A stretch of DNA of 64,000 bases from Escherichia coli (GCF_024502345.1 NZ_JALDNN010000001.1), one strand, 5' to 3'; shown: positions 45,637 to 64,000, counted from the stretch's first letter. Numbers and translations: made by a program. Notes: generated by a model not told the origin, from the letters alone.

Positions 45637-45871
45637 GGCAAAACAAACTAAGTCTATAAAGATTTTTTCAGCCTGGCTCTAATCGACTGAATCTCAGCAT
45701 ACTCCGCTTTTGAAGCCTTGACACGTCAGTTGTTCTTTCACCTCTGAGTGGCTACTCGCGACTGCCTGCAGGAGACTGATTATGTTATTGACCGCAAAAT
45801 CCATTAACTGACTTTTCGACTTAATCTCCTTAAGTTATGTGAGAAATTTGCCGATATGAAAACATGATCCT

Positions 45872-45908
45872 CCAGTCGCTACTGACATGCCCTGTCAGTA
45901 GCGACTGG
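45872..45908. promoter_or_regulatory. Perfect 16-bp inverted repeat with 5-nt spacer upstream of the HTH gene fragment
   Basis: ccagtcgctactgaca-tgccc-tgtcagtagcgactgg, ~35 bp upstream of the ATG at 45942. Confidence 0.4.
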
Positions 45909-45941
45909 TAATCTCAAGGAAAAATTACAAGGAGAACGCGC

Positions 45942-46176
45942 ATGAGCGGGCATGAGGTAATGGTACAAAGAATAACCGCTATTATTGCAGAACTTTACCA
46001 GTACGGTTTTGTATCACGTAAGAAGATGATGGACGAATTCAACATCAGTGAGCGTACTTTGTATCGTGATCTTAATCGTCTGGGCGACAGAATCGTCCCC
46101 GATGGTGATGGTATTTACAGGCTGGCTCCCGCTTACGCTAAACCTCAGGCTCTAAAAGAACAACAAAATCTCGGCC
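45942..46176 (+). pseudogene. HTH (DeoR-like) regulator gene, 5' fragment (~78 codons), joined without IS to appC
   Basis: MSGHEVMVQRITAIIAELYQYGFVSRKKMMDEFNISERTLYRDLNRL; frame runs into appC sequence at ~46175. Confidence 0.45.
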
Positions 46177-47133: not shown

Positions 47134-47144
47134 AGGAGAAAATC

Positions 47145-48281
47145 ATGTTTGATTATGAAACATTGCGCTTCATCTGGTGGCTGCTGATTGGCGTGATCCT
47201 GGTGGTCTTTATGATCTCCGACGGATTTGACATGGGGATCGGCTGTTTGCTGCCGCTGGTGGCGCGTAATGATGATGAACGCCGGATAGTGATTAATAGC
47301 GTTGGTGCGCACTGGGAAGGCAATCAGGTCTGGTTGATCCTCGCAGGTGGGGCATTATTTGCCGCCTGGCCCAGAGTGTATGCAGCGGCGTTTTCCGGCT
47401 TTTATGTGGCGATGATCCTGGTGCTGTGCTCGCTGTTCTTCCGCCCGCTGGCCTTTGATTATCGCGGAAAAATCGCCGATGCACGCTGGCGTAAAATGTG
47501 GGATGCCGGTCTGGTCATCGGCAGTCTGGTGCCGCCGGTAGTCTTCGGTATCGCCTTCGGCAACTTGTTGCTCGGCGTGCCGTTTGCCTTCACACCGCAA
47601 TTACGCGTGGAGTATCTCGGCAGCTTCTGGCAACTGCTGACGCCATTCCCTTTATTGTGCGGATTGCTCAGCCTTGGGATGGTGATTTTGCAAGGTGGCG
47701 TCTGGTTACAACTGAAAACTGTTGGTGTGATTCATCTGCGTTCACAGCTGGCGACTAAACGCGCTGCACTGTTGGTGATGCTGTGCTTTTTGCTGGCGGG
47801 TTACTGGCTGTGGGTCGGTATTGATGGCTTTGTACTGCTCGCCCAGGATGCTAACGGTCCTTCCAATCCGTTAATGAAACTGGTGGCAGTGCTACCTGGT
47901 GCCTGGATGAATAATTTTGTCGAGTCGCCCGTTTTGTGGATCTTCCCGCTACTGGGGTTCTTCTGCCCATTGCTGACGGTGATGGCGATTTATCGTGGTC
48001 GCCCGGGTTGGGGATTTTTGATGGCATCATTGATGCAATTTGGCGTGATTTTCACGGCAGGCATCACGCTGTTCCCCTTTGTCATGCCGTCAAGCGTGAG
48101 TCCAATCTCCAGCCTGACGTTGTGGGACAGCACTTCCAGTCAGCTGACGCTGAGTATTATGTTGGTAATCGTGCTGATATTTTTGCCCATTGTGTTGCTC
48201 TACACTCTCTGGAGCTACTACAAAATGTGGGGGCGCATGACGACAGAAACTCTCCGCCGTAACGAAAACGAGCTGTACTAA
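47145..48281 (+). CDS. appB: Cytochrome bd-II oxidase subunit II (AppB/CbdB)
   Basis: 378-aa membrane protein [33 protein letters not shown]... Confidence 0.9.
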
Positions 48282-48293
48282 GGAGCAGGAACA

Positions 48294-48386
48294 ATGTGGT
48301 ATTTACTTTGGTTCGTCGGCATTTTGTTGATGTGTTCGCTCTCCACCCTTGTGTTGGTATGGCTGGACCCGCGATTGAAAAGTTAA
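48294..48386 (+). CDS. appX: Cytochrome bd-II accessory small membrane protein AppX
   Basis: 30-codon ORF MWYLLWFVGILLMCSLSTLVLVWLDPRLKS with SD AGGAGCAGG upstream. Confidence 0.7.
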   Translation: MWYLLWFVGILLMCSLSTLVLVWLDPRLKS

Positions 48387-48465
48387 CGAACGTAAGTCTG
48401 ATGCGGCGCATTAGCGTCGTATCAGGCAATCAATAATGTCGGATATGAAAAGCGGAAACATATCG

Positions 48466-49764
48466 ATGAAAGCGATCTTGATCCCATTTTTATCTCTTCT
48501 GATTCCGTTAACCCCGCAATCTGCATTCGCTCAGAGTGAGCCGGAGCTGAAGCTGGAAAGTGTGGTGATTGTCAGTCGTCATGGTGTGCGTGCCCCAACC
48601 AAGGCCACGCAACTGATGCAGGATGTCACCCCAGACGCATGGCCAACCTGGCCGGTAAAACTGGGTTGGCTGACACCGCGCGGTGGTGAGCTAATCGCTT
48701 ATCTCGGACATTACCAACGCCAGCGTCTGGTAGCCGACGGATTGCTGACGAAAAAGGGCTGCCCGCAGCCTGGTCAGGTCGCGATTATTGCTGATGTCGA
48801 CGAGCGTACCCGTAAAACAGGCGAAGCCTTCGCCGCCGGGCTGGCACCTGACTGTGCAATAACCGTACATACCCAGGCAGATACGTCCAGTCCCGATCCG
48901 TTATTTAATCCTCTAAAAACTGGCGTTTGCCAACTGGATAACGCGAACGTGACTGACGCGATCCTCAGCAGGGCTGGAGGGTCAATTGCTGACTTTACCG
49001 GGCATCGGCAAACGGCGTTTCGCGAACTGGAACGGGTGCTTAATTTTCCGCAATCAAACTTGTGCCTTAACCGTGAGAAACAGGACGAAAGCTGTTCATT
49101 AACGCAGGCATTACCATCGGAACTCAAGGTGAGCGCCGACAATGTCTCATTAACCGGTGCGGTAAGCCTCGCATCAATGCTGACGGAGATATTTCTCCTG
49201 CAACAGGCACAGGGAATGCCGGAGCCGGGGTGGGGAAGGATCACTGATTCACACCAGTGGAACACGTTGCTAAGTTTGCATAACGCGCAATTTTATTTAC
49301 TACAACGCACGCCGGAGGTTGCCCGCAGCCGCGCCACCCCGTTGTTGGATTTGATCATGACAGCGTTGACGCCCCATCCACCGCAAAAACAGGCGTATGG
49401 TGTGATATTACCCACTTCAGTGCTGTTTATCGCCGGACACGATACTAATCTGGCAAATCTCGGCGGCGCACTGGAGCTCAACTGGACGCTTCCAGGTCAG
49501 CCGGATAACACGCCGCCAGGTGGTGAACTGGTGTTTGAACGCTGGCGTCGGCTAAGCGATAACAGCCAGTGGATTCAGGTTTCGCTGGTCTTCCAGACTT
49601 TACAGCAGATGCGTGATAAAACGCCGCTGTCATTAAATACGCCGCCCGGAGAGGTGAAACTGACCCTGGCAGGATGTGAAGAGCGAAATGCGCAGGGCAT
49701 GTGTTCGTTGGCCGGTTTTACGCAAATCGTGAATGAAGCACGCATACCGGCGTGCAGTTTGTAA
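48466..49764 (+). CDS. appA: Periplasmic acid phosphatase / phytase AppA
   Basis: 432 aa from MKAILIPFLSLLIPLTPQSAFA; histidine acid phosphatase motif RHGVRAP. Confidence 0.9.
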   Translation: MKAILIPFLSLLIPLTPQSAFAQSEPELKLESVVIVSRHGVRAPTKATQLMQDVTPDAWPTWPVKLGWLTPRGGELIAYLGHYQRQRLVADGLLTKKGCPQPGQVAIIADVDERTRKTGEAFAAGLAPDCAITVHTQADTSSPDPLFNPLKTGVCQLDNANVTDAILSRAGGSIADFTGHRQTAFRELERVLNFPQSNLCLNREKQDESCSLTQALPSELKVSADNVSLTGAVSLASMLTEIFLLQQAQGMPEPGWGRITDSHQWNTLLSLHNAQFYLLQRTPEVARSRATPLLDLIMTALTPHPPQKQAYGVILPTSVLFIAGHDTNLANLGGALELNWTLPGQPDNTPPGGELVFERWRRLSDNSQWIQVSLVFQTLQQMRDKTPLSLNTPPGEVKLTLAGCEERNAQGMCSLAGFTQIVNEARIPACSL

Positions 49765-49774
49765 TGCATAAAAA

Positions 49775-49800
49775 AGAGCATTCAGCTACCTGAATGCTCT
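49775..49800. terminator. Hairpin between convergent appA and etk ends
   Basis: Perfect 11-bp inverted repeat agagcattcag-ctac-ctgaatgctct. Confidence 0.45.
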
Positions 49801-49830
49801 GAGGCTGATGACAAACGAAGAACTGTCTAA

Positions 49831-49870
49831 TGCGTAGACCGGAAAAGGCGTTCACGCCGCATCCGGTCAC
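49831..49870. repeat. REP (repetitive extragenic palindromic) element
   Basis: tgcgtagaccggaaaaggcgttcacgccgcatccggtcac resembles the E. coli REP consensus. Confidence 0.5.
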
Positions 49871-49883
49871 TTTACCTTCAGTT

Positions 49884-50578
49884 TTACTCTTTCTCGGAGT
49901 AACTATAACCGTAATAGTTATAGCCGTAACTGTAAGCGGTGCTGGCGCGTTTAATCACACCATTGAGGATAGCGCCTTTAATATTGACGCCTGCCTGTTC
50001 CAGACGCTGCATTGACAAGCTCACCTCTTTGGCGGTGTTCAGGCCAAAACGCGCAACCAGCAGGCTGGTGCCGACAGAGCGCCCCACGACCGCAGCATCG
50101 CTCACCGCCAGCATCGGCGGCGTATCGACAATCACCAGATCGTAATGGTCGTTCGCCCATTCCAGTAATTGACGCATCCGATCGCGCATCAGCAGTTCAG
50201 ACGGGTTAGGTGGCATCTGACCGCGAGTAATCACATCAAAGCCTCCTTTGCCAAAATGCTGGATCACTTTGTTGAGCTCATCTTTACCTGCCAGATATTC
50301 CGACAAGCCATGTGCATTACTCACGGTAAACAGGTTATGCGAATAACCATGGCGTAAGTCGGCATCAATAAATAACACTTTTTGATCGGACTGGGCGATC
50401 ACCGCTGCCAGAGTTGAACTGACAAATGTTTTACCACTGTCTGGCGTCGCACCGGTGATCATCAGAATGTTATTCTCAGTCTCCATCATAGCGAAATGCA
50501 GACTGGTTCGTAGCGCACGTACGGCTTCCACAGCAGAATCCGCCGGGTTATCCACCGCCAGGAAGGGGATATTTTTAG
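49884..50578 (-). pseudogene. etk: Tyrosine-protein kinase Etk/Wzc family, C-terminal ~230 codons only; 5' part removed at the IS5 junction
   Basis: Walker A/B kinase domain (GATPDSGKTFVSSTLAAV, DLVIVDTPP) and Tyr-rich tail YSYGYNYYGYSYSEKE; reading frame runs into the IS5 end at 50579. Confidence 0.75.
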
Positions 50579-51773
<1,195 letters not shown>

Positions 51774-52368
51774 CAAGAGAACGCAACAGCGCACTTGCTT
51801 TGCCACAGTTGAATTTTGTGCCGTAACGATGTGCAAGCATGTAAGCATAAGGAGTCAAGGTATAGCGTGTTACTTAGTTACTCGGATTAACAATCCCAAC
51901 GTACAGAGCGGCGGATTTACAGAGTCAGCGCAGTCCCTGCTCCGGCAGTCAGTGGCAGGCGGCGTACTGAAGCAAACCATTATCGATACCGGCATCGGCG
52001 ATACCATCGGCATGCTGATGTCACACGGCAATATTTCTCCCTACATCATGGCGTGGTTGATAACCGTGCTGATCCGTCTGGCAACGGGTCAGGGCGTGGT
52101 CTCAGCCATGACGGCGGCGGGGATTATTAGCGCAGCAATCCTCGACCCGGCAACCGGTCAACTGGTGGGCGTCGACCCGGCGTTGCTGGTGCTGGCAACA
52201 GCGGCTGGCTCCAACACGCTGACCCATATCAACGATGCTTCGTTCTGGCTGTTCAAAGGCTACTTTGATCTGTCGGTGAAGGATACGCTGAAAACCTGGG
52301 GTCTGCTGGAGCTGGTAAACTCCGTGGTTGGCCTGATAATCGTGTTGATCATCAGCATGATTGCATAA
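51774..52368 (+). pseudogene. GntP-family permease, C-terminal fragment
   Basis: ...[44 protein letters not shown]...[27 protein letters not shown]; 5' boundary not resolved, upstream frame runs into IS5. Confidence 0.55.
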
Positions 52369-52417
52369 CGTTGATACCGCTCTGGCCCACAGCGCCAGAG
52401 CGGTTTTCCATCCTGCC

Positions 52418-53113
52418 TCAACAATCCTCAATAATCAGATATACCGCCTTCACCGGACCATGCACCCCAACCACCTTGATAAGCTCAATATCCGCCGTCG
52501 AGCTGGGTCCACTGATGATATTAATGCACGATGGCATACGCTCACCGGCCTGTGCTTTCTGATGCAGTTTTTCTGCCAGCTGCGCCACGCGCGGCAGGAT
52601 GGTGCTTTTACGCAGCACGAAAATAGAGGACTCCGGCAACAGGCTCAGGGAGCGCCCGCGCTCCGGTGCGGAAAACAGCACCACGCCGCCGGACTCGGTC
52701 AGGCCATATTCGGCATACACCACGCCGACTTTCGCCTGCTCGGCCTGGGTAATATTTTCGCTACCACGCGCCGGATCCCAGACCACGGCGTTGCATTCCT
52801 GCTGCAAGCGTTCGGTGATGCCCAGCTCCACCAGCCGGCTGTCGCCGCTCAGCACCACCGGCTGCTGACCCAATTCTTCGCACAGGCGCAGTGCCGCGTC
52901 TGCGGCCTGGTCCTCGCTGGTCAGTTCGCAGCGGGCCAGCATCACTTCGCTGGCAAACTGGATAAACGCAGAGCAGCGCTGCTCGGGGCTAAGCTCGGTC
53001 AGGCGCTCGTTGGCATAGTTGTTAACCGGTGCGGCATCCGCTTGCGGTTCGAAGCGCAGCGGGCGACCCAGCGCCTGGGCGATGGTGTTTAAAAACGCGG
53101 TACGGTTATCCAT
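52418..53113 (-). CDS. ykgG: LutC-like lactate utilization protein YkgG
   Basis: 231 aa from MDNRTAFLNTIAQALGRPL; overlaps ykgF stop. Confidence 0.85.
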   Translation of the reverse strand: MDNRTAFLNTIAQALGRPLRFEPQADAAPVNNYANERLTELSPEQRCSAFIQFASEVMLARCELTSEDQAADAALRLCEELGQQPVVLSGDSRLVELGITERLQQECNAVVWDPARGSENITQAEQAKVGVVYAEYGLTESGGVVLFSAPERGRSLSLLPESSIFVLRKSTILPRVAQLAEKLHQKAQAGERMPSCINIISGPSSTADIELIKVVGVHGPVKAVYLIIEDC

Positions 53114-54533
53114 TCTTTTTCTCCTGCGCCTGATGTTTCTTAAACCAGCTGCGGAAGCTCTCGCCGTCAGCATCAGGCAGATCGCGCGCCTCCATCCAGT
53201 CACCAATCGCGCCAACCTTGAGCGGGGTTTTGCCGCCATTGATAAACCAGCTCGCCGCATGCGCGCCCGCCATCATCCCGACTTTCCACAGCCCCGGATG
53301 GCTATTGGCATAGGCGAACATCTTGATCGCCCGTCGCTCGGCTTTCGGCGTAATGCCCTCCTCGGCCATCACCCGGCGATGACGCAGGATCAGTTTTGAC
53401 AACGGAATACGCACCGGGCAGACGCTGTCACAAGCCGTGCACAAAGAACAGGCGTACGGCAGGTCTTTAAAATCTTTATAGCCGCCGAGCAGCGGAGAAA
53501 TCACCGCGCCGATAGGGCCGGGATAGATAGAGCCATAGCCGTGCCCGCCGATGTGGCGGTACGCCGGACAGGTGTTCATACAGGCTCCGCAGCGGATGCA
53601 GCGCAGCACATCGCGAAACTCTGAGCCCAGCACCTGCGAGCGACCGTTATCGACAATCACCAGATGGAACTCTTCCGGTCCGTCAACGTTGTCCGCCTCA
53701 CGCGGGCCGGTCAGCCAGGTGTTGTAGCCCGTCAGACGTGCGCCCACGGCGCTGCGCGCCAGCATGGTAATCAGCACATCCACCTCGGCAAAGGTCGGCG
53801 CGATACGCTCCATGCCCATCACCGCAATGTGCGTTTTCGGTAGCGTGGTGCACATGCGCGCGTTGCCTTCGTTGGTCACCAGACACACCGAGCCGGTTTC
53901 CGCCACGGCAAAGTTACAGCCAGTAATACCGATTTCGGCACTGAGGAAATCCTCGCGGATCTTCTGACGAATGAACAAGGTCATAGCTTCCGGGGTTTCC
54001 GGGCCGTCGTACCCCAGACGTTCGTTCAGCACGCGGCGGATCTGGTAGCGATCTTTATGAATCGCCGGAACCACGACGTGCGAAGGCGGATCCTGATCCA
54101 ACTGCAGGATATATTCCCCGAGATCGGTTTCGATCACCTGGATTCCGGCATCCTGCAACACATGGTTGACGCTGATTTCTTCGGTCACCATCGACTTGGA
54201 CTTCACCACCTTCTGCGCATTTTTACTCTGCGCGACCTGCAAAATGTAGCGAGTGGCATCTTCTTTGGTTTTGGCGAAATAGACGTGTCCGCCGTTTTCC
54301 GTCACTTTCTCGGAGAGTTGGTACAGGTAAGCGTCGAGGTTGCTCAGAACGTGATCGCGGATCTGGCTGGCACGATCGCGCCATTCTTCCCAGTGGCCTA
54401 ACTCATCGACCATTTTTTGCCGATTCGCGCCGATACGCTCCTGCGCATTAGCCACGGCTTTGCGCATAATCGGATCTTCTATCTGCTGACGAATACGCAG
54501 TTTAAATTCTACATCGCTGGTTTTTATCGACAT
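53106..54533 (-). CDS. ykgF: LutB-like iron-sulfur lactate utilization protein YkgF
   Basis: 475 aa with two CxxCxxCxxxCP ferredoxin motifs. Confidence 0.85.
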   Translation of the reverse strand: MSIKTSDVEFKLRIRQQIEDPIMRKAVANAQERIGANRQKMVDELGHWEEWRDRASQIRDHVLSNLDAYLYQLSEKVTENGGHVYFAKTKEDATRYILQVAQSKNAQKVVKSKSMVTEEISVNHVLQDAGIQVIETDLGEYILQLDQDPPSHVVVPAIHKDRYQIRRVLNERLGYDGPETPEAMTLFIRQKIREDFLSAEIGITGCNFAVAETGSVCLVTNEGNARMCTTLPKTHIAVMGMERIAPTFAEVDVLITMLARSAVGARLTGYNTWLTGPREADNVDGPEEFHLVIVDNGRSQVLGSEFRDVLRCIRCGACMNTCPAYRHIGGHGYGSIYPGPIGAVISPLLGGYKDFKDLPYACSLCTACDSVCPVRIPLSKLILRHRRVMAEEGITPKAERRAIKMFAYANSHPGLWKVGMMAGAHAASWFINGGKTPLKVGAIGDWMEARDLPDADGESFRSWFKKHQAQEKKNG

Positions 54534-54543
54534 CTCTTTCCCC

Positions 54544-55263
54544 TCAGCGGCTCATCAGCACTTCAGCAATATGCATCACTTTGACCGGCTGGCCTTCCCG
54601 TTGCAGTCGACCGCCAATGTTCAGCAGGCAGCTAACGTCTGCGCCAATCAAAAATTCCGGCTTTGCGTCCATCAGATGTAATACTTTCTCTTTCACCATC
54701 TCACCGGATATCTCGGCCATCTTGACCGAGAACGTCCCGCCAAAGCCGCAACAGGTATCCTGATCGGCAAACGTCAACAGCTCCAGTCCGCGCACGTTTT
54801 TCAGCAGCGTAAGCGGCTCTTCCTTCACTCCCAGTTTGCGGGTCAGGCTACAGGAAGGATGATACACAGCGCGGCCCTGCAGGCTGGCACCAACGTCCAC
54901 CACACCCAGTTTGTTGACGATAAAGGAGGTGAGATCCTGCATACGCGCGGAAACTTTCTCAGCACGCAGCGCCCATTCCGGTTCATCGGCCAGATACGTC
55001 GGGTAGCTTTTAACCGCGTAGGTGCAGGAGCCCGCCGGGGAGATAATCGGATCGTCGTTGTCTTCCAGCGCGGCGATCAGGTTTTTCATCCCGGGGATCG
55101 CCTCTTTGATGTAACCGCTGTTGATGGCTGGCTGACCGCAACACCCTTGCTTCTCGGGGAAATTAACGCGACAACCCAGTTTTTCCAGCAGCAATACGGA
55201 GTCTCGTGCCATCCGTGATTTCAGTGCGTCACCAATACAGGTGACAAAGAAATTTACATTCAC
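54544..55263 (-). CDS. ykgE: LutA-like Fe-S oxidoreductase YkgE (cysteine-rich domain)
   Basis: 239 aa MNVNFFVTCIGDALKSRMARDSVLLLEKLGCRV... with CCG motifs. Confidence 0.85.
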   Translation of the reverse strand: MNVNFFVTCIGDALKSRMARDSVLLLEKLGCRVNFPEKQGCCGQPAINSGYIKEAIPGMKNLIAALEDNDDPIISPAGSCTYAVKSYPTYLADEPEWALRAEKVSARMQDLTSFIVNKLGVVDVGASLQGRAVYHPSCSLTRKLGVKEEPLTLLKNVRGLELLTFADQDTCCGFGGTFSVKMAEISGEMVKEKVLHLMDAKPEFLIGADVSCLLNIGGRLQREGQPVKVMHIAEVLMSR

Positions 55264-55337
55264 AATAACTACTCCATTGCTTCATTTCTGTTTATTGCGC
55301 TTGATATCGCGATATCAAACAAATGTTCATTCGTATT

Positions 55338-57035
55338 TCATGCCCAGTTTTTATGTTTGCTGGTTTTACCAATACCTGGGTTCATAGTGTTGGTCGGATC
55401 ATTTTCCTGATAAAAACGTGCCAAATTTTCCGGCGCTTTATACAGATGGCCGACATTGTGTTCCGCCGGATATTGCGCTCCGCGTTGGCGCAGTAATTCC
55501 AGCATCTGTTCTTTTAACGCGTGGGCATCTACGCCTTTTTTAACGATATAATCCTGATGGAATACATGGCACATAAAATGGCCGTAATAGAGTTTATGCA
55601 CCAACTGACTGTCAATTTCCGCCGGTAAATGCTCATACCATTCGGTATCATTGCGGCGTAATGCAATATCCAGCGCGAGAATATCCTCAACCTCGTCAGA
55701 ATGAACGGCCTGATAACGAATGGCAGCACCCGCGGCGGCAAAACGATGCAGAAACGCCTTACTGCCCTCTTCCGCGGTACAGGTAAAGAACGCGCCCTCG
55801 GCCGATTTAAAATAGTCCGTTAACCATGCCTGGGCTTCGGCCACACCCTCACCGGACATTTTCAACATCAGATGGTGTTCATAGTTATCGCGCCAGGTCT
55901 TCATCCGCGCCGGGAGATGGCTCGGGAACAGATGGCTAAAAGCCTGCATCGCGCGGTCGGTAAAGTGCGGGCGAAAGATCTTCACCTTCTCAAGTATGGC
56001 CTCGGTACGCCCCTTCAGGTTGAAGAAGAACGGCATTTTGTCCGTGCCAAGTTTGTCGATCATCAGGAAGGTATCTTTGCTGTATTTCTCTGCAATATCA
56101 TAGATATCGCGGTGCATATACTCCCCAGCAACCGGCAGGTTTGTAAAATTCGCCAGGATGTGGCGGCGAATCTCAGTCAGGACATCAGTCTGATTGGTAC
56201 CGATATAAAAGACCTGCTGGTTCTTCTCGGCTTCAAAGGTATCCAGACGTACGGCAAACACCGCTAACTTGCCCGCACAGCCAGAGGATTCAAACAGGCG
56301 ATCCGGGTCAGCGTTGTAACGTGCTGGCGTGTCGGCATTGATGTCCCGCACGCGGCTAACATAGTCGTGATCGTGCGCGTGACGCCCGTCATGGTTGACG
56401 AGCACGGCTTCAATCGCATTGTTATCCAGCCGGGCAAGGATTTGCTCTGGCGTCTGACCTAGCTCAATGCCGAGGTGATTGACCAGCTGCAAGCGTCCCT
56501 GTTCATCAATACGGGCAAACAGCGACATCTCGGTATAAGCCGGGCCACGCTGGACCAGAGAACCGCCGGAGTTATTACAGATACCGCCGATAACCGACGC
56601 GCCGATGCACGAAGAGCCAATCACCGAATGCGGCTCACGGCCAAACGGCTTCAGCGCCTTTTCCAGCGAATACAGCGTGGTGCCCGGATAAGCCAGCACC
56701 TGCTTACCCTCATCCAGCACATGCAGACTGTCCAGCCGCAGCGTGCTGATAATGACGATCTCGCGGTCGTAATCATTACCATTGGGCGTCGAACCCTCAG
56801 TCAGGCCAGTGTTCGACGCCTGCATCAGGATTATTTTATCGGCCTCAACGCAGGCGCTAAGGACTTTCCAGAGTTCAAGCAAAGAGCCGGGGATAACCAC
56901 CGCCAGAGCATCACCCTGACCCGAGCGAAAACCCTTACGGTAACGCGCAGTTTTTGACGGTTCGGTGAGGATATGAGCAGGGCCAACCAATTGGGTAAGA
57001 GTTGTCAAAAAGGTCTTATTATCAGTATGTTTCAT
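55338..57035 (-). CDS. FAD-dependent D-lactate dehydrogenase, Dld paralog
   Basis: ~565 aa from MKHTDNKTFLTTLTQLVGPAHILTEPSKTARYRKGFRSGQGDALAVV; ORF-track start at 57083 is probably an extension. Confidence 0.8.
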   Translation of the reverse strand: MKHTDNKTFLTTLTQLVGPAHILTEPSKTARYRKGFRSGQGDALAVVIPGSLLELWKVLSACVEADKIILMQASNTGLTEGSTPNGNDYDREIVIISTLRLDSLHVLDEGKQVLAYPGTTLYSLEKALKPFGREPHSVIGSSCIGASVIGGICNNSGGSLVQRGPAYTEMSLFARIDEQGRLQLVNHLGIELGQTPEQILARLDNNAIEAVLVNHDGRHAHDHDYVSRVRDINADTPARYNADPDRLFESSGCAGKLAVFAVRLDTFEAEKNQQVFYIGTNQTDVLTEIRRHILANFTNLPVAGEYMHRDIYDIAEKYSKDTFLMIDKLGTDKMPFFFNLKGRTEAILEKVKIFRPHFTDRAMQAFSHLFPSHLPARMKTWRDNYEHHLMLKMSGEGVAEAQAWLTDYFKSAEGAFFTCTAEEGSKAFLHRFAAAGAAIRYQAVHSDEVEDILALDIALRRNDTEWYEHLPAEIDSQLVHKLYYGHFMCHVFHQDYIVKKGVDAHALKEQMLELLRQRGAQYPAEHNVGHLYKAPENLARFYQENDPTNTMNPGIGKTSKHKNWA

Positions 57036-57470
57036 GGAGGGCGGCTCTCCGCTCCTTATATCAGGGCCAGTGAAAATGGCCATAAGTTCATTTGTACGAC
57101 AAAACAGAATATTCCCTCAATCAATATCCACATGCAATACCCCATTTTATTTCTTTCGGCACCGCTCACATTTTTTAATGAAATTACCACTACCACATAA
57201 TTCATACTCCGTTCTTTTACTGGATGCCAAAACGCTTATTTCATTTATTGCAAAGACCATTTCATACCTATTAATGATTAACTCTAATGGGTATTATTAT
57301 ATTTAGTGGTTATTCATGTTTAATAAAAAAATAACATTATTTATACAATTATTAACCTTTGTAACTTTATTTCACTGAAGCGATTCAGTTTGCATTTTTT
57401 ATTTTATTATTAAGGTAGCCTCCTTCCCCCTAAATATAGTTAAGTCTAAAAAAGTAAATCGGGAATTGTA

Positions 57471-59024
57471 ATGCACGAATATTTAATGTTTGCTCTGGCA
57501 CTCTCTCCTTTGCTGCTGATGGTATTTTTAATACTGAAATTAAAAATGCCCATCCATTATTCCGTACTGATCTCTTTGGTATTCACTGCTGCACTATCGG
57601 CAATATTCTGGGAAATGCCCACACAGAATCTGAAAGCCGCGATAGGCTATGGTGCACTGAAGGGACTATGGCCGATCGTAATTGTTATCCTCGGCGCTAT
57701 CTTCAGTTATAACGTCATGCAGGCGACCAAAGCGCTGGATATTCTGCGCGATATTCTCGCCAGCATTAGCGAAGATAAGCGTATTCAGGTGCTGCTGATT
57801 TCATGGTGTTTTGGTGGATTTCTTGAAGCCGCTGCGGGCTATGGCACGGCGGTCGCTATTCCGATCGGTATTCTCATTGCGCTGGGATTCAACCCGTTGA
57901 AGGCGGCGATTGCTTCCCTCGTAGCAAATACCGTTCCGACCGCATTTGGCGCGGTTGGGATCCCGGTTTCTATTCTGGCAGAGCAGGTTAATCTGCCGGT
58001 TTATACCTTAGGCGGAACCATTATTTTGCAGCTCGCGCTGTTTAATATCCTGCTGCCGTTTGTGATTGTCTGCATTATTGGCGGTGGCCTGAAAGCCATT
58101 CGCGGCGTATTTCTGATCACGTTGATTTGCGGCATTTCCACGCTGGTTCCGCAATATTTTGTCGCCATCCATCTTGGCGCGGAATTACCCGCCTTTGCCG
58201 GTAGCCTGGTCAGCCTGTTTGCCGTGGCGATGGTCAGTCGCCTGCGCAAAGGGAAAACCGATCCCGAGTGGCGCATTGAGGTCAGCCATACCCGCGAAAC
58301 CACGCCGCGCTCGGCAAAAGTGTTGTTCCGGGTTGGCTCTATTTATCTGTTTATTTTTGTGTTTATCCTGCTGTGTTCGCCGCTGTTCCCGACAATAAAA
58401 GGCGCGGCATCCCAACTGGCTTCGGTGCTGCATTTCCCGTTGGCTGACGGCAAAACGATGGCGCTGAAAGTTGAATGGGCGACCACACCGGGGATGCTGA
58501 TCATCTTTGCGACCATTATCGGCGGTTTTATTCAGGGAGCGTCCGCACGTGGGATGCTGGAAGTATTTATCAAAACGATTTTCCAGCTTAAAAACTCTAT
58601 CGTCGCAATTATGGCGATCGTCGCGCTGGCCACGGTGATGGATCTCAGCGGGATTATCTCCACGCTGGCCCAGTCGATTGTCGATCTGACCGGCAGCTCG
58701 TACGTCTTCCTCGCCCCGGTGATTGGCGCGCTGGGCACGTTCGTGACCGGCAGCGATACCAACTCGAACATTCTGTTCGGCAAGCTGCAAACCATTGCCG
58801 CCAGCAAGTTACATATCGATCCTAACTGGCTGGCGGCGGCCAATACCTCTGGCGCTACGGGGGGGAAAATGATTTCGCCGCAAAGCATCGCCATCGCAGT
58901 TTCTGCCACCAAAATGGACGGTCAGGCCAACCAGATTATGTCTGGCACCATGAAATACTGCTGCGCCTACATTGTGATCCTCGGCCTGAAAGTCGGTCTG
59001 TTTTATTACTGGTTTATGGCGTAA
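57471..59024 (+). CDS. L-lactate permease family transporter (LctP)
   Basis: 517-aa multi-TM protein with LctP-family C-terminal block TGSDTNSNILFGKLQ...[13 protein letters not shown]; divergent from the dld-like gene. Confidence 0.8.
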   Translation: MHEYLMFALALSPLLLMVFLILKLKMPIHYSVLISLVFTAALSAIFWEMPTQNLKAAIGYGALKGLWPIVIVILGAIFSYNVMQATKALDILRDILASISEDKRIQVLLISWCFGGFLEAAAGYGTAVAIPIGILIALGFNPLKAAIASLVANTVPTAFGAVGIPVSILAEQVNLPVYTLGGTIILQLALFNILLPFVIVCIIGGGLKAIRGVFLITLICGISTLVPQYFVAIHLGAELPAFAGSLVSLFAVAMVSRLRKGKTDPEWRIEVSHTRETTPRSAKVLFRVGSIYLFIFVFILLCSPLFPTIKGAASQLASVLHFPLADGKTMALKVEWATTPGMLIIFATIIGGFIQGASARGMLEVFIKTIFQLKNSIVAIMAIVALATVMDLSGIISTLAQSIVDLTGSSYVFLAPVIGALGTFVTGSDTNSNILFGKLQTIAASKLHIDPNWLAAANTSGATGGKMISPQSIAIAVSATKMDGQANQIMSGTMKYCCAYIVILGLKVGLFYYWFMA

Positions 59025-59281
59025 ACCATTGTCAACCCCGTCAAATTCGCGGCAATCGAATTTGACGACATAGTGACCAAAAAGGTTTGCACCGCCCCGG
59101 GAACGGAACGAGGCAACAGACTTTACGATTTGTCGGCGCTGACTAAAATAGCGCCGATGTTTCAAATCGAGGATTGTTGTTATGTTGTTCTGGAAAAAGA
59201 TGGTGAAGAAGTTCGACGCCTTTTCCGGTGATGCTGCCAACTTACTGATTTAGTGTATGATGGTGTTTTTGAGGTGCTCCA

Positions 59282-59557
59282 GTGGCTTCTGTTTCTATCA
59301 GCTGTCCCTCCTGTTCAGCTACTGACGGGGTGGTGCGTAACGGCAAAAGCACCGCCGGACATCAGCGCTATCTCTGCTCTCACTGCCGTAAAACATGGCA
59401 ACTGCAGTTCACTTACACCGCTTCTCAACCCGGTACGCACCAGAAAATCATTGATATGGCCATGAATGGCGTTGGATGCCGGGCAACCGCCCGCATTATG
59501 GGCGTTGGCCTCAACACGATTTTCCGCCATTTAAAAAACTCAGGCCGCAGTCGGTAA
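59282..59557 (+). CDS. insA: IS1 InsA
   Basis: 91 aa [43 protein letters not shown]... Confidence 0.85.
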
Positions 59558-59979
59558 CCTCGCGCATACAGCCGGGCAGTGACGTCATCGTCTGCGCGGA
59601 AATGGACGAACAGTGGGGATACGTCGGGGCTAAATCGCGCCAGCGCTGGCTGTTTTACGCGTATGACAGGCTCCGGAAGACGGTTGTTGCGCACGTATTC
59701 GGTGAACGCACTATGGCGACGCTGGGGCGTCTTATGAGCCTGCTGTCACCCTTTGACGTGGTGATATGGATGACGGATGGCTGGCCGCTGTATGAATCCC
59801 GCCTGAAGGGAAAGCTGCACGTAATCAGCAAGCGATATACGCAGCGAATTGAGCGGCATAACCTGAATCTGAGGCAGCACCTGGCACGGCTGGGACGGAA
59901 GTCGCTGTCGTTCTCAAAATCGGTGGAGCTGCATGACAAAGTCATCGGGCATTATCTGAACATAAAACACTATCAATAA
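59476..59979 (+). CDS. insB: IS1 InsB (made as InsAB' by programmed frameshift)
   Basis: 167-aa overlapping ORF, typical IS1 organisation. Confidence 0.8.
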
Positions 59980-60253
59980 GTTGGAGTCATTACCGACCGG
60001 GTTAAACCGGAAATGCGACACCTCGGAAGTGTCTCCTGAAAACCTTTCATCAGTACGCTCATCATGCTGTTCATAGAGTAGTCCAAATACAGTACCGTAC
60101 AGTACGGTACGTTTTATATCTTGACTTCTGAGCGCCGTCAAATGAAAATGTACTCGTCAGTACGATTACGAACCCTACTATCTGACGTGATTCCGAAATC
60201 TGAGAACAAAAAGTGTTGGCCCCGGCCAGACACCTAAACTAACGAGGAAACAT

Positions 60254-60898
60254 ATGGATAAAAGAGCGCTTAAACGGCAACAGATCCTGGAGGTCGCATC
60301 CGGACTGTTTCGACAAAAGGGATTTGATGCCACGTCTATCTCAGAAATTAACGCGATTGTTGGTGGCTCAAAATCGACAATTTACAGTCACTTTTCTTCG
60401 AAAGAAGAGCTATTTGTAGAATGCATGTCTTCAGAAACTGAACAGTATATAAAAAGCATGACTATTGAAACTGCGGGGCAGGTGCGCCTTTTCAGAAAAT
60501 CACCACAGCTGGTCATCGAGCAATTTGCCGTTGCCTTTTTACGCTATATTTGCTCTCCGGATATTGTGGATTTGCAAAGATTAATGATTTCCGAGGCCGG
60601 AAGATCGGGTATCGGAGAATTATATTATGCGCGAATGCAAAAACTGCGTTCAAATGTTTCGGCGCTTTTTACCGATTTAATGAATCAAAATATTTTAAGA
60701 AAAGATGATCCTGTGTTGGCGGCTGAGTATTTTCGTTCTCTTCTCCAGGCCGACATACTGGAACCCTTGCTTTTAAAAGCAAGAAAGGATCAGCCTGACG
60801 AAAGTGAAATCGTCATGAAAGCGCAGGCCTCCGTTAATGCGTTTATGAAACTGTATGGTCCTGAAAAAATTGAGGATGTAGCAAAGACATCTTTCTAA
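60254..60898 (+). CDS. TetR/AcrR-family transcriptional regulator
   Basis: 214 aa; N-terminal HTH LEVASGLFRQKGFDATSISEINAIVGGSKSTIYSHFSSKEELF; AT-rich gene. Confidence 0.75.
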   Translation: MDKRALKRQQILEVASGLFRQKGFDATSISEINAIVGGSKSTIYSHFSSKEELFVECMSSETEQYIKSMTIETAGQVRLFRKSPQLVIEQFAVAFLRYICSPDIVDLQRLMISEAGRSGIGELYYARMQKLRSNVSALFTDLMNQNILRKDDPVLAAEYFRSLLQADILEPLLLKARKDQPDESEIVMKAQASVNAFMKLYGPEKIEDVAKTSF

Positions 60899-60916
60899 AA
60901 TACAGTAAGCGTTCTT

Positions 60917-60946
60917 TCACCCTATTATTAGGGTGATTTTTCTTTT
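60917..60946 (+). terminator. Rho-independent terminator after the TetR-family gene
   Basis: tcaccct-attatt-agggtga hairpin followed by TTTTTCTTTT. Confidence 0.55.
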
Positions 60947-61021
60947 AGGAATATTTATTTTCAATTGTCATTGGATGACTTTGCCAACGGCCTTCTTGTA
61001 AATAAAATTTCGTGGATACTT

Positions 61022-61426
61022 ATGTGTATAAAGTTTACTCTCTTAAAAGATCGTGAAGCTGTAATTAAGTCTCTTACTCACTGGATTGACTCGAATTTAT
61101 ACCGGCCCATTACCGTTTTAGATGTGGCGCGGAAATCCGGTTATTCATTGGCTTACATTCAGCGTAACTTTCGCCAGGAGTGTGGCATAAGTATAGGTCT
61201 CTATATCCGAAGCCGGAAACTCGAAAAAGCCGCGCATATGCTCAGACATACGCAGCTCTCTGTTTCAGATATATTCACGATGTTAGGGTACGAGGAGCCG
61301 TCAACGTTCAGCAGAGCGTTCTCGAATCAATATGGGCTCTCCCCAACCAAATACCGCGAGCTGGCTAAAAAAAGTCACTACATGAATGGATTGTCGATGT
61401 TGATTACTGAGGTAACGCGCGAATAA
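61022..61426 (+). CDS. Small AraC-family (MarA/SoxS-like) transcriptional regulator
   Basis: Twin HTH pattern ...WIDSNLYRPITVLDVARKSGYSLAYIQRNFRQECGISIGLYIRSRKLEKAAHML...; start uncertain (ATG 61022, or TTG 60965). Confidence 0.65.
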   Translation: MCIKFTLLKDREAVIKSLTHWIDSNLYRPITVLDVARKSGYSLAYIQRNFRQECGISIGLYIRSRKLEKAAHMLRHTQLSVSDIFTMLGYEEPSTFSRAFSNQYGLSPTKYRELAKKSHYMNGLSMLITEVTRE

Positions 61427-61438
61427 AGCGATAATCCG

Positions 61439-63223
61439 CTAACCCGCCTCCAGCATCCCAAAGCTCACAATCCGCGCGCGGCCCAGCTCTTTCGCCCGGT
61501 ACAAGGCCACATCCGCGGCGCGCAGCAGGTTGTCAGTCTGGGCATGTTGCGGGTAGCTGGCAATGCCAATCGACACGTCCACCGGCCCAATCTCGGTCAG
61601 CCCGTAGCGAATCGACAGCTCATGTACGCCGGTGTAAATCGTCTGCACGCAGGCGTGCGCCTCTGGTTCATCGGCACCGGGAAGCAGCACCAGAAACTCC
61701 TCGCCCCCGTAGCGGAATGCGAGTCCGTTGTCATGGGCAGCCCGCTGGACAATTGACGCCACGCTTTTAATCACCTGATCGCCCGCTTCATGGCCGAATC
61801 GGTCGTTGATGCTCTTGAAGTGATCGATGTCGATCATCATGCAGCTTAACGGCTCGCCGGTGCGCAACGCCTGTGCCGTTTGGGTTTGCAGGGTATCTTC
61901 CAGATGATGACGATTACGCAGGCCGGTGAGCGGGTCGAACAAGGCTTTTTCCAGCAACGCGTCGCGCAGACGCTGGTTGGCCAGCGCCAGACCGAGCGCT
62001 TCGGCCATCAGTTCCAGATAGGCGCGGGATGGGGCGTTGTCCGCCGTAATATTCTGGAAGGAGAGCAGGCCAATGGCCTCGCCCTGGGCGATAAGCGGCA
62101 CGCACAGCGAACTATCCGCCTGGGGGGCCGGAAGATGATAGCAGGCGATATCCGGCTCACCGTTTACCGGCGGGTGGCTCTGCCCGCGACGCACGGCCCA
62201 GCACTCGTCAGGGTGGAAGCTCGTCTCTTCCCCAACCGGTGAAAGCCATTGCGCGACGCAGCGCATCTGCCACGGCTCCCGGTCAAGGACGTAAAGTCGG
62301 CCCGCGATCCCCGGTGCGATATTAGGCGCAAACAGCTCCGCCACGTTAATCACATCGTTAAAGTTCTCACACCCCTGCAGCCGCTGGGTCATGCGCGCCA
62401 GCAGTTCGCGGATGGCCCAGTCGGCATCGCGTTCTCTTTCCAGACGCTGTCGCGCCAGGCCGTTTTCGCGGAAGATGCGGATGGCCTGGGCCATATCGCC
62501 AATCTCATCAATCTGGTTGAAATTGGGCGTTTCAACCGCGTAATCCTGGGACGCCAGACGGTGCACCACGTCGCTCAGGCGCACCACGGGACGCAGCACG
62601 CGGCGCTTTAATATAAAGCCGAGAACAAACAGGAACAGCAGGGCGGTCAGGCCGACCATCAGCTCAGAGGCCGTACGCAGCGCTTTCGATTTTTTTGTCG
62701 CATCCTGAACGGAGGCGATGACGCGTTTGTCGAGTATCTGGCGGAAGTGATCGAGCTGGCTCTGCGCGCGCTCCAGCTCCTGCTCATAGGGCGCACCGTA
62801 GAGCAGCGCAACGGCCTGCGCGTCTTCTCCCTGCGTCGCGCTCGTTAGTGCCGTTTGCTGCTCGTCCTGTAGCTCATCGACGATCTTTATCCCTTCATGC
62901 AGCAGGGCCAGTTCTTCATCCGATGCGCCGTTATCCTGCAACTTTTCCAGCCGAAGCTCGATGCTCTTCAGGCTGTTTTCCGCCTGGTTATATTCCTTGA
63001 GAACCTGAGGATCTTTTTTAATGACGTACAGTCGTGCTAAATCAGACTGGGCCCAGATATCGGTTTCGATATCTTCCGTGAGCTGATCAAATTTCTGCCG
63101 TTGTTCAACGGCCTGACGCTCGAGGGTATCAGCACTGGACGCCATCAGCATGATGATGCCGGAGGCGATGGTCAGGCAGACCGTGGCCCCATAGGCCCAG
63201 TTTGTTATCGTTGCGATTCGCAC
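61439..63223 (-). CDS. Membrane-anchored diguanylate cyclase with N-terminal sensor/coiled-coil, GAF-like region and C-terminal GGDEF domain
   Basis: 594 aa; GGDEF-domain motifs RYGGEEF and DPLTGLRNRHHLED; GC-rich relative to neighbours. Confidence 0.8.
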   Translation of the reverse strand: MRIATITNWAYGATVCLTIASGIIMLMASSADTLERQAVEQRQKFDQLTEDIETDIWAQSDLARLYVIKKDPQVLKEYNQAENSLKSIELRLEKLQDNGASDEELALLHEGIKIVDELQDEQQTALTSATQGEDAQAVALLYGAPYEQELERAQSQLDHFRQILDKRVIASVQDATKKSKALRTASELMVGLTALLFLFVLGFILKRRVLRPVVRLSDVVHRLASQDYAVETPNFNQIDEIGDMAQAIRIFRENGLARQRLERERDADWAIRELLARMTQRLQGCENFNDVINVAELFAPNIAPGIAGRLYVLDREPWQMRCVAQWLSPVGEETSFHPDECWAVRRGQSHPPVNGEPDIACYHLPAPQADSSLCVPLIAQGEAIGLLSFQNITADNAPSRAYLELMAEALGLALANQRLRDALLEKALFDPLTGLRNRHHLEDTLQTQTAQALRTGEPLSCMMIDIDHFKSINDRFGHEAGDQVIKSVASIVQRAAHDNGLAFRYGGEEFLVLLPGADEPEAHACVQTIYTGVHELSIRYGLTEIGPVDVSIGIASYPQHAQTDNLLRAADVALYRAKELGRARIVSFGMLEAG

Positions 63224-63342
63224 CTGATGATCCTTTTACGACATGAGTAGGATGGCGTTCTTCAAATTATAGAAAACGTCTGATTTAAGGCGAAAAAAAA
63301 GGCGGCACATCGCCGCCTGGTGTGGTCTATATCGTCACATCC

Positions 63343-64000
63343 TCACAATTCTGGAGGATTTTTTCCTTCTTCGATGAAGTCGGGGTCCAGCTCTTCGGCG
63401 TTACCTTCGTGATCGCGCCCTGAGAAGAGGTTCCAGCAGGCGATAAACAGCGCGGCAATGAGCGGCCCAATCACAAAGCCGTTAATGCCGTACAGCTCCA
63501 TGCCGCCGAGGGTGGAGATCAGTATCAGGTAGTCCGGCATTTTGGTGTCTTTCCCGACCAGCAGCGGGCGCAGGATATTGTCCACCAGCCCGACGATAAT
63601 CACGAAGAAGCCGACAATAAACAGCCCTTGCCAAAGCTGATGGGTGGCGAACAGGAAGATGGCGGCGGGCACCCAGACAATCGCCGAGCCGATGGCGGGC
63701 ACCAGCGAGAGGAAGGCCATCAGCGCGCCCCAGAGCACGCTGCCGTCAATACCGGCAATCGCAAACGCAATCCCGCCGAGGATGCCCTGAACCACCGCCA
63801 CCGCCGCCGTACCTTTTACCGTGGCGCGCGACACGCCGACGAATTTGGCGAACAGGTGTTGCTTGGCGAAATCAGACAGCGGCAGGGAGTCGAGGATCTG
63901 GCGCACCAGATACGGGCCGTCTTTCAGCAGGAAGAACAGCAGATAAAGCATGATGCCGAAGCTTATCGCAAAGCCAAACGTGCCCTTGCCAATCAGAAAC
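63343..64000 (-). CDS. AI-2E-family (PerM/UPF0118) transporter, 3' part; gene continues beyond window end
   Basis: Multi-TM C-terminal region ending ...DPDFIEEGKNPPEL; ORF open to position 64000. Confidence 0.6.
   Translation of the reverse strand, partial: FLIGKGTFGFAISFGIMLYLLFFLLKDGPYLVRQILDSLPLSDFAKQHLFAKFVGVSRATVKGTAAVAVVQGILGGIAFAIAGIDGSVLWGALMAFLSLVPAIGSAIVWVPAAIFLFATHQLWQGLFIVGFFVIIVGLVDNILRPLLVGKDTKMPDYLILISTLGGMELYGINGFVIGPLIAALFIACWNLFSGRDHEGNAEELDPDFIEEGKNPPEL

Follow-up and report, generated by a model that had tools for sequence, protein, structure and literature searches.

The locus at 51774 to 59024 of a 64,000-nucleotide (nt) stretch of Escherichia coli DNA (GCF_024502345.1, NZ_JALDNN010000001.1; the whole stretch is hereafter the window) raises the question of whether its five lactate-related genes are the resident ykgEFG locus of E. 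coli with other neighbours or a set brought in from elsewhere. These genes are a dld-like gene for D-lactate dehydrogenase, three ykgEFG-like genes (here lutABC) and a divergent gene for an LctP-family permease (here lctP). The initial annotation had read them as a combined D- and L-lactate unit distinct from that of E. coli K-12, on the ground that ykgEFG in K-12 is preceded by rclR and not by dld; the reading stands, and the K-12 sequence confirms that layout. Its implicit picture of a resident ykgEFG with another upstream neighbour has to be given up, the genes being an extra copy with 83% nt identity to the resident one. The region is very probably a horizontally acquired, self-contained D- and L-lactate catabolic cassette that originated in Citrobacter.

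Origin of the Locus

The Citrobacter-derived segment covers 51955-59227 (7.3 kb). A scan with the permease protein, using one genome per species, found the Citrobacter freundii complex at 97-99% amino acid (aa) identity. The nt match to C. portucalensis spans the complete segment, with coding sequences 96-98.5% identical, and a Citrobacter chromosome (locus L093) encodes the exact Dld protein of the window in its native context, with 97.3% nt identity to the window across 51955-59232. The order in this chromosome is tyrosine phenol-lyase, aromatic amino acid permease, pyridoxal kinase, lctP, dld-lutABC, full-length gntP, uxuAB and a GntR-type regulator, and the donor order can be written tpl-tyrP-pdxK-lctP<>dld-lutABC-gntP-uxuAB, where <> marks divergent genes. 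The gntP fragment that accompanies the genes in the window encodes the C-terminal part of GntP, from codon 311, with 100% aa identity to C. portucalensis, and it is best read as a relic of the donor chromosome. On the lctP side, the homology ends at 59227, where it is cut by an IS1 element; on a Klebsiella plasmid the homologous DNA extends approximately 220 bp beyond this end. A 7.3-kb piece of a C. freundii-complex chromosome has come to lie between an IS5 and an IS1 insertion sequence (IS) in an E. coli genomic island.

The comparison with the resident loci of E. coli points the same way. More than 5,100 complete E. coli genomes have the resident ykgEFG, and the cassette LutABC proteins are 86-95% identical to those of K-12 overall (YkgE 94%, YkgG 86%). 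The cassette dld has approximately 78% nt and 87% aa identity, over the full length and with no gaps, to the core dld of E. coli, which sits at pbpG-dld-bglX and was found in 5,425 of the 5,426 complete genomes. The K-12 layout consists of rclR, a 526-bp spacer and ykgEFG-ykgH-betA, with neither dld nor a permease gene nearby. The dld of the window is not the canonical gene misplaced by mis-assembly, as the core copy stays at pbpG-bglX, and the synteny comparison shows that the arrangement is not the standard one of K-12. By these comparisons the cassette is an accessory, horizontally acquired extra lactate set and not a rearranged resident ykgEFG, and its dld is a xenologue from Citrobacter and no duplicated host gene. 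The core lactate genes (dld; normally also lldPRD, ykgEFG and glcA) are supplemented by the cassette and not replaced; glcA, part of this usual set, lies in the same window. The place counts suggest that most carriers have the cassette as well as the resident ykgEFG; the record of strain LHM10-1 (H46) has one lutABC/ykgEFG place only. The stretch 51500-59300 is 99.9% identical to E. coli strain G3/10 and others.

Gene Content, Selection and Predicted Function

The features of the locus are collected in Table 1. The five open reading frames (ORFs) that the initial annotation had named, dld-like, ykgEFG-like and a divergent LctP permease, were all found where it had placed them. The distance from dld to ykgE, which had been given as 75 bp, measures 74 bp, with both genes on the same strand as described. 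The lutABC genes follow each other in the order A-B-C, and the earlier observation that they abut or overlap holds, with a 10-bp gap between lutA and lutB and an 8-bp overlap between lutB and lutC. The 435-bp spacer described as very AT-rich has a guanine-cytosine (GC) content of 32.2%, against 52-60% across the genes, and its length is valid when dld starts at Met17. The longest dld ORF (55338-57083) would leave a spacer of 387 bp to lctP; Met17 (57035) is a better start than 57083, since C. gillenii does not share the upstream ATG and the alignment to the family model begins at residue 17. The left limit proposed originally, 51774, falls at the first bases past IS5 and takes in non-lactate DNA, namely the filler and the gntP fragment.

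Table 1. Features of the lactate locus and its flanks (positions in the window).
Feature	Position	Strand	Basis or remark
IS5 (ISKpn26-like), left edge	50576-51777	-	Transposase 50725-51705; annotated ISKpn26-family IS5 in G3/10
Filler, 177 bp	51778-51954		Between IS5 and gntP fragment
gntP 3' fragment, codons 311-447	51955-52368	+	Aligns with NF007459 positions 311-446
lutC/ykgG-like, 231 aa	52418-53113	-	LUD domain PF02589, E = 7e-30
lutB/ykgF-like, 475 aa, iron-sulfur subunit	53106-54533	-	TIGR00273
lutA/ykgE-like, 239 aa, CCG-domain subunit	54544-55263	-	Motifs and PF02754
dld-lutA spacer, 74 bp	55264-55337	-	18-bp perfect palindrome inside; no terminator
dld, respiratory flavin adenine dinucleotide (FAD)-dependent D-lactate dehydrogenase, 565 aa from Met17	55338-57035	-	NF008387
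Divergent dld-lctP control region, AT-rich, 435 bp	57036-57470		Composition; conserved ends
GntR/FadR-type palindrome TTTGTACGACAAA	57091-57103		Predicted overlap with dld-lutABC transcription start
Putative dld-lutABC promoter	57109-57137	-	-35 TTGCAT (57137-57132), 17-nt spacer, -10 GAATAT (57114-57109)
Conserved block AAATGTGAGCGGTGCCGAAAGAAATAAA, CRP-like half-site TGTGA	57146-57173	-	Centred about 61 nt upstream of inferred start
Cra(FruR)-like operator ACTGAAGCGATTCAGT	57374-57389		Upstream of lctP
LctP-family lactate permease, 517 aa, lut-linked type	57471-59024	+	TIGR00795
Last Citrobacter-derived bases, 203 bp	59025-59227		Homology ends at 59227, cut by IS1
IS1, right edge	59228-59995	+	Termini read; annotated IS1B in G3/10

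The Dld protein scores 1046.8 bits against the equivalog model NF008387 (cut-off 391) over model positions 3-567 of 570, the match in the profile search spanning residues 17-581 of the longest ORF; the domains PF01565 (FAD-binding) and PF09330 (membrane-association) are recorded for an identical protein. LutB reaches 758.9 bits against TIGR00273, the L-lactate oxidation equivalog (cut-off 444.8), and its translation contains two 4Fe-4S binding motifs of the form CxxCxxCxxxCP, CIRCGACMNTCP and CSLCTACDSVCP. No NCBIfam equivalog model exists for the LutA-type subunit alone; the translation of lutA has two CCG motifs (GCCGQP and TCCGFGG), the family-model search matched it to the GlcF/GlpC/LdhH C-terminal region, and PF02754 is on record for an identical gene. 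LutC matched no NCBIfam model, and the LUD domain was found instead. The permease scores 403.6 bits against TIGR00795 (cut-off 341.15), with residues 4-509 on model positions 6-526 of 530, and falls far below the equivalog cut-offs for LldP (NF007740, 257.6 bits against a cut-off of 918) and GlcA (NF007249, 253.6 bits against a cut-off of 1121). By these scores, it is a member of the LctP family that is neither LldP nor GlcA; its identity to the GlcA encoded in the same window is 34-41%.

All five genes are full length, with no internal stops or frameshifts, and are under strong purifying selection. The pairwise ratio of nonsynonymous to synonymous substitution rates (dN/dS) lies between 0.015 and 0.13 for the five genes in four comparisons, made with the Klebsiella plasmid copy, C. 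portucalensis, C. gillenii and the plasmid pLR-46_1. By gene, the values are 0.04-0.13 for lutC, 0.025-0.05 for lutB, approximately 0.02 for lutA and approximately 0.05 for dld.

While the anatomy, origin, spread and selection of the cassette are read directly from the comparisons, its substrates, operon structure and regulators are predictions from the sequence. The LctP-family permease would import D- and L-lactate together with a proton. Dld, a peripheral-membrane FAD enzyme, would convert D-lactate to pyruvate and pass the electrons to quinone; this quinone-linked activity is predicted from the 87% identity to the characterised enzyme. The LutA/LutB/LutC iron-sulfur complex would convert L-lactate to pyruvate with transfer of the electrons to the respiratory chain. 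The YkgEFG proteins of E. coli have been described as a respiratory L-lactate dehydrogenase in nitrate respiration, with a fitness defect of the mutants on L-lactate plus nitrate and no role with D-lactate (PMC9701030).

Insertion Sequences and Spread

The IS5 has the terminal repeats GGAAGGTGCG...CGCACCTTCC and no target-site duplication, as its flanking 4-mers, TTAG and CAAG, differ; the flanking 9-mers of the IS1 do not match either. The absence of target-site duplications argues for IS-mediated recombination or deletion and not for simple insertion. A composite transposon was considered and rejected, the left and right elements being different ones and neither having matching flanking repeats. 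The filler next to IS5 had no match in Citrobacter loci or K-12 and, among the sequences compared, was found only in other E. coli copies of the unit. The IS5-to-IS1 unit (50576-59995) is 98.7-99.97% identical in at least four E. coli flank contexts; the IS1 stands at the same junction in other E. coli contexts and the IS5 accompanies the cassette in at least four of them. The several contexts of the unit probably arose through IS-mediated recombination.

A query made of the permease gene and the spacer was found in 108 of the 5,426 complete E. coli genomes (approximately 2%), in 90 chromosomal and 19 plasmid places; approximately 96 of these genomes match at 95% identity or more, and 12 more at approximately 82-86%. 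Among plasmids there are 199 matching records, of which 143 cover at least 80% of the query and 122 are predicted to be conjugative; they are mostly Klebsiella IncF plasmids, with 124 records from Klebsiella, 55 from Escherichia and 11 from Raoultella. The cassette of the Klebsiella plasmid is 97.1% nt identical over 7,241 bp, the gntP relic included, and in K. pneumoniae p08EU827_1 it lies between the ars and pco clusters.

The divergent matches (82-86% nt identity) form a family on E. coli plasmids such as pLR-46_1, which is 98-99% nt identical to C. gillenii (L011), flanks included. The flank of this family differs from that of the window and has a fragment of the aromatic amino acid permease gene. 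By these two sets of sequences, the locus has been captured from Citrobacter at least twice, with all five genes each time.

In one of the flank contexts, that of the E. coli loci L090, L091 and L097, the cassette takes the place of the CP4-6-to-rclR region, in the order mmuPM-afuC-afuB'-IS1-cassette-IS5-ykgEFG, so that the resident and the cassette lut copies coexist. In this part of the three loci (about 13331-17400), the IS5 is inserted at CTAG, 99 nt upstream of the resident ykgE, and separates the resident ykgEFG from its conserved promoter. The resident ykgE of L097 is called as two ORFs of 150 and 132 aa.

Evolution of the Arrangement

Wherever a locus extends far enough to reveal the flanking genes, the permease ortholog adjoins lutABC. 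In Edwardsiella, Pectobacterium, Dickeya, Serratia, Kosakonia, Proteus, Budvicia and others, lctP and lutABC are co-directional, with lctP first and no dld. The permease gene is divergent in Citrobacter, and dld lies between the spacer and lutA in C. gillenii, L093 and the mobile copies. At this locus, dld is absent from the references of C. portucalensis, C. braakii, C. werkmanii, C. youngae and five other Citrobacter species. All dld-less Citrobacter references have the same deletion, equivalent to 55409-57040 of the window, which leaves the last 71 bp of dld (19-23 codons, 70-89% identity) and the dld ribosome-binding region; an example of the remnant is found in L004 (9497-9565), and likewise in L005, L006, L013 and L028. 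Such remnants indicate that dld is polymorphic within the C. freundii complex and that the dld-less form is the derived one. A 280-aa ORF between lutA and lctP in Tenebrionibacter was considered as a truncated dld, its N-terminus being similar, and was discarded because tblastn gave no similarity to Dld.

The K-12 locus has traces of the same arrangement. The rclR-ykgE spacer is homologous to both ends of the control region, with 79% identity over 87 nt (E = 3e-15) and 87% over 39 nt (E = 1e-7). In K-12 DH10B (L087), a 25-residue relic of lctP (residues 334-358, 80% identity) at 6811-6885 abuts the rclR stop codon, and the spacer (6347-6872) contains a degenerate Cra-like site, ACTAAATTGCTTCAAT. 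The orphan ykgEFG of E. coli thus has the look of a divergent lctP<>lutABC unit that has decayed. A dld relic in the K-12 ykgE leader was also considered, and the similarity (AAACAT...GGGCATGA) is short and too weak to claim one.

Control Region and Candidate Regulators

The dld and lutABC genes are most likely co-transcribed from a promoter in the AT-rich spacer, because the 74-bp spacer between dld and lutA contains no terminator-like fold and the same promoter region lies upstream of lutA/ykgE in the dld-less alleles and in K-12; the operon of dld with ykgEFG claimed in the initial annotation is thus judged probable. As a terminator or attenuator, the dld-lutA spacer found no support, with a fold of -10.4 kcal/mol (z = +0.29 against shuffled sequences) and nothing placed there by the terminator scan. 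The 18-bp perfect palindrome of this spacer, TTGATATCGCGATATCAA (55301-55318), is conserved in the C. freundii-complex alleles, while the corresponding position in C. gillenii and K-12 is taken by hairpins rich in GC (fold z about -1.8).

Both ends of the control region are conserved across Citrobacter. On the dld side, K-12 and Citrobacter share the hexamers of the putative promoter with their 17-nt spacing; the -10 hexamer there is GATTAT. The CRP-like block upstream of it (AAATGTGAGCGnnGCCGAAAGAAATAAA in the alignment) is near-invariant in Citrobacter, the Klebsiella plasmid, the window and K-12. The GntR/FadR-type palindrome occurs once in the window, with 0.16 occurrences expected by chance, and its arms do not vary among eight Citrobacter or mobile sequences and K-12 (ATTTGTCATACAAAT). 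From its position just downstream of the -10 hexamer, this is a site where a repressor would block initiation. Palindromes like it, ATTTGTCACACAA and ATTTGTCATATAAAT, were also observed upstream of lctP-lutABC in Proteus (L035-L044, at about -265) and Kosakonia (L015 and L030, at about -44 from lctP).

Two candidate regulators for this palindrome come from published data on K-12. The knock-down of pdhR in lysogeny broth (LB) raises the activity of the K-12 ykgEFG promoter (fold-change value 1.68, -logP 4.87; PPTP-seq, Supplementary Data 6 of PMC10505187), and DNA affinity purification sequencing (DAP-seq) supports PdhR binding at the same promoter, which is homologous to that of the cassette (PMC10505187). 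The YieP regulon obtained by chromatin immunoprecipitation with exonuclease treatment (ChIP-exo) includes ykgE, as it is cited in PMC11340327. By motif alone, PdhR was not accepted, as its core differs from the site and ykg is absent from its target list by genomic systematic evolution of ligands by exponential enrichment (gSELEX); it is kept as a candidate only through the PPTP-seq and DAP-seq data. LldR found no support as the regulator of the palindrome, the LldR box AAnTGGTCnGACCAnTT being matched at 9 of 14 positions and ykg being absent from the LldR gSELEX list.

Upstream of lctP, the Cra-like operator shares 13 of the 14 positions of the published Cra motif ctgaAtCGaTtcag; the window has this site once (0.14 expected), and it is invariant in Citrobacter. 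Of 27 other Enterobacterales loci, 17 have a related palindrome 88-115 nt ahead of the lctP start codon, against an estimated chance rate of approximately 0.02 per sequence. In most of those loci it lies 27-28 nt upstream of TATAAA or TATAAG, which would centre it near -46.5, a position from which Cra activates ppsA. The other genera and the window differ in how far the Cra-like site lies from the best -10-like hexamer, and therefore neither activation nor repression is called here. One report on Cra (PMC5888115) makes no mention of ykgE, lldP or dld. The degeneration of the K-12 site and the lack of lctP in K-12 would explain why the Cra studies made in K-12 are without this site.

The cassette carries no regulator gene. 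The lctP gene would be read divergently from the same AT-rich spacer as dld-lutABC, and the control would depend on regulators supplied by the host, through the Cra-like site at lctP and through the CRP-like half-site and the GntR/FadR-type operator (with PdhR or YieP as candidates) at dld-lutABC. Such sites for host regulators could allow a sensible expression after transfer. The generic promoter and terminator scans gave counts not above the shuffled expectation and add no independent support. The Rfam search matched no RNA family inside the cassette, and the search for transfer RNA genes found none in the 64-kb window.

Weighing the Alternatives

A local rearrangement of the resident ykgEFG locus, with dld and the permease gene moved beside ykgE, would give a similar gene order, and in L090, L091 and L097 the cassette does stand directly beside the resident ykgEFG. 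These same loci hold both copies with an IS5 between them, the lutABC genes have 83% nt identity to the resident ones against 96-98.5% to Citrobacter, and dld has approximately 78% to a core gene that stays at pbpG-bglX in 5,425 of 5,426 genomes; with the Citrobacter-identical gntP fragment also accompanying the cassette, a rearrangement is very improbable. The chance of an assembly artefact or a chimera made by the flanking insertion sequences is close to negligible. The IS5 and IS1 flanks without target-site duplications would fit an artefact, as would the finding that no complete genome matches 80% or more of window positions 20001-45000 in one place, but more than 100 independently finished genomes of E. 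coli have the same order and junctions, as do 199 plasmid records and, free of any IS, Citrobacter chromosomes.

The genes could also be passenger DNA in E. coli, intact but silent or redundant, moved by IS and plasmid traffic without a gain in fitness. This is an improbable reading that nevertheless deserves some weight, as native lactate genes are present (the core dld, the near-universal ykgEFG and the glcA of the window), dld has been lost from this locus in most C. freundii-complex references and only approximately 2% of E. coli genomes carry the cassette. DNA of 32% GC is also of the kind silenced by H-NS. In a mouse colitis model, moreover, E. coli ykgEFG and dld mutants had no defect (PMC9701030). 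Against passenger DNA stand the strong purifying selection on the five genes, which includes the comparison of plasmid with chromosomal copies, the two independent captures with all five genes intact in both, the persistence of the cassette on many conjugative plasmids of Klebsiella and the conservation of the operator-like sites in the spacer. A cassette mainly for another 2-hydroxy acid, such as glycolate or another short hydroxy-carboxylate, would account for a permease far below the LldP and GlcA cut-offs and for the relation of LutA and LutB to GlcF and GlpC. LctP-family carriers are said, in the title of Nunez et al. 2002, to take glycolate as well. This alternative has only a slim chance, since the score of Dld is 2.7 times the NF008387 cut-off and its identity to the characterised enzyme 87%, LutB scores above the cut-off of the L-lactate oxidation equivalog, and YkgEFG, 86-95% identical, acts on L-lactate and not on D-lactate (PMC9701030).

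The preferred reading, a lactate cassette under the control of its host, also has points that weigh against it. On the side of function, the range of substrates of the permease is an assumption, given its 34-41% identity to GlcA, a characterised LctP-family carrier; the deletion of dld from this locus in most C. freundii-complex references means that the gene is dispensable there; and the host already has pathways for lactate, so the benefit is putative. On the side of control, the putative dld-lutABC promoter was not flagged by the generic promoter scan, which found 7 sigma-70 promoter-like matches where 6.6 were expected from shuffled sequence. The CRP-like site matches the consensus in one half only, the GntR-type site reads TGTnnnACA while the PdhR core is GGTnnnACC, and both the missing ykg entries in the PdhR and LldR gSELEX lists and the 9/14 match to the LldR box count in the same direction, as does the divergent spacing of the Cra-like site.

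A wider proposal, put forward tentatively and considered rather unlikely as a whole, is that the cassette is a portable unit free of regulators and wired to conserved host regulators (Cra at lctP; CRP and a GntR-type repressor that senses pyruvate or acid, such as PdhR or YieP, at dld-lutABC), which gives a real advantage on D- and L-lactate, that the lut-linked lctP of Enterobacterales is an unrecognised member of the Cra regulon, and that ykgEFG is a decayed remnant of the unit. If this were true, E. coli and the epidemic Klebsiella plasmids would gain on lactate from the host and the microbiota, for instance in the inflamed gut, during anaerobic or nitrate respiration. In the gut, the lactate that the host and lactic acid bacteria supply is a nutrient of relevance to Enterobacteriaceae, and having uptake and both stereospecific dehydrogenases on a transferable cassette could help explain its retention beside metal-resistance genes on large Klebsiella plasmids. 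The value of the locus lies in being a tidy example of metabolic cargo from well-characterised families, passed from Citrobacter to E. coli and Klebsiella, and in the testable regulatory predictions that it offers.

Previous Reports and Related Systems

The arrangement, called distinct in the initial annotation, is not new; it is annotated in hundreds of public records, in which all five genes are named correctly, and has been mentioned in print. The plasmid pFec10 of E. coli Fec10 was reported to carry a 'lactate utilization gene cluster' with LctP, Dld and a second YkgEFG, the reason for gaining a second ykgEFG being called unknown (PMC7984374); with an LctP that has no chromosomal counterpart, a Dld with more than 85% identity and a YkgE with 94% identity, it fits the cassette by its description. 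In a study of uropathogenic E. coli of sequence type 127 (ST127), lutABC and lutP were listed among the genes of lineage-specific islands (PMC9769692). The cassette is, in this sense, a known and ordinary metabolic cargo. What is added here is its Citrobacter origin, the IS-bounded unit and its contexts, the two captures, the deletion of dld as a derived state, the lctP relic of K-12 with the promoter shared there, and the regulatory predictions. The Klebsiella IncFIB/IncFII plasmids such as p08EU827_1 have the same cassette; the copy in the window is chromosomal, bounded by IS5 and IS1 and approximately 220 bp shorter on the lctP side.

The closest studied system is the lldP-dld-lldEFG cluster of Shewanella oneidensis MR-1 (SO_1522 to SO_1518; Pinchuk et al. 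2009, as described in PMC5432575). As far as that description goes, it has the same five functions, involves CRP and contains no regulator gene inside the cluster. Its D-lactate dehydrogenase is described there as a distant homolog of the yeast FAD-dependent enzyme, whereas the cassette has a classical E. coli-type Dld (NF008387). The Shewanella transcripts, by the same account, are lldP-dld, activated by CRP, and lldEFG, induced by L-lactate, with termination between dld and lldE; in the cassette, unlike in Shewanella, lctP runs divergently and dld would share a transcript with lutABC.

The lutABC genes of Bacillus subtilis, with lutP and lutR, were described by Chai et al. 2009 (cited in PMC7984374). 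The likeness is that of a three-subunit system for L-lactate oxidation linked to a lactate permease, the proteins being much more distant. The Bacillus cluster has the dedicated GntR-type regulator LutR beside its genes and is not known to contain a dld. Closer to the cassette are the lctP-lutABC operons of other Enterobacterales, with permeases at 62-80% aa identity and orthologous LutABC, many of them with a Cra-like palindrome at a similar distance upstream of lctP; the permease gene of Citrobacter and Escherichia is inverted with respect to these, and some Citrobacter have dld between the promoter and lutA. The ykgEFG of K-12 shares the -35/-10 hexamers, the CRP-like block and the GntR-type palindrome with the dld-side control region of the cassette. 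It differs in having rclR upstream and dld and lldPRD unlinked, and these are core chromosomal genes and not IS-bounded cargo.

Neighbouring Genes in the Window

To the left of the cassette, a truncated appC, appB, cbdX, appA and the 3' end of etk (45301-50555) abut the IS5. These genes are part of the E. coli app-etk region and have been displaced into the island; G3/10 carries the app-etk segment twice, with one copy interrupted by IS30. The region from glcA to the app fragment (21400-44573) is a mosaic island. Among the complete E. coli genomes of the collection, none is collinear with 80% or more of 20001-45000, and G3/10 matches the window only from 39590 onward, with a gap at 43573-44629.

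The genes to the right of the IS1 (60254-63951) encode a TetR-family regulator, an AraC-family regulator like MarA/SoxS/RamA, a HAMP-GGDEF diguanylate cyclase and an AI-2E family transporter; they are placed outside the cassette because Citrobacter has no counterpart of them next to lctP. Approximately 38 kb upstream of the cassette, at 11293-19717, lies the glycolate operon glcDEFGBA, whose GlcA is a second LctP-family carrier, and the Rfam search placed the small RNAs C0719 (17735-17956) and isrC (20808-20930) beside it. Near the same operon, the genes at 2493-8786 encode an LptF-like permease, a serine palmitoyltransferase/BioF-like enzyme (599 bits, NF047599) and a fatty acyl-AMP ligase, a set that looks like one for lipid or sphingolipid-type biosynthesis.

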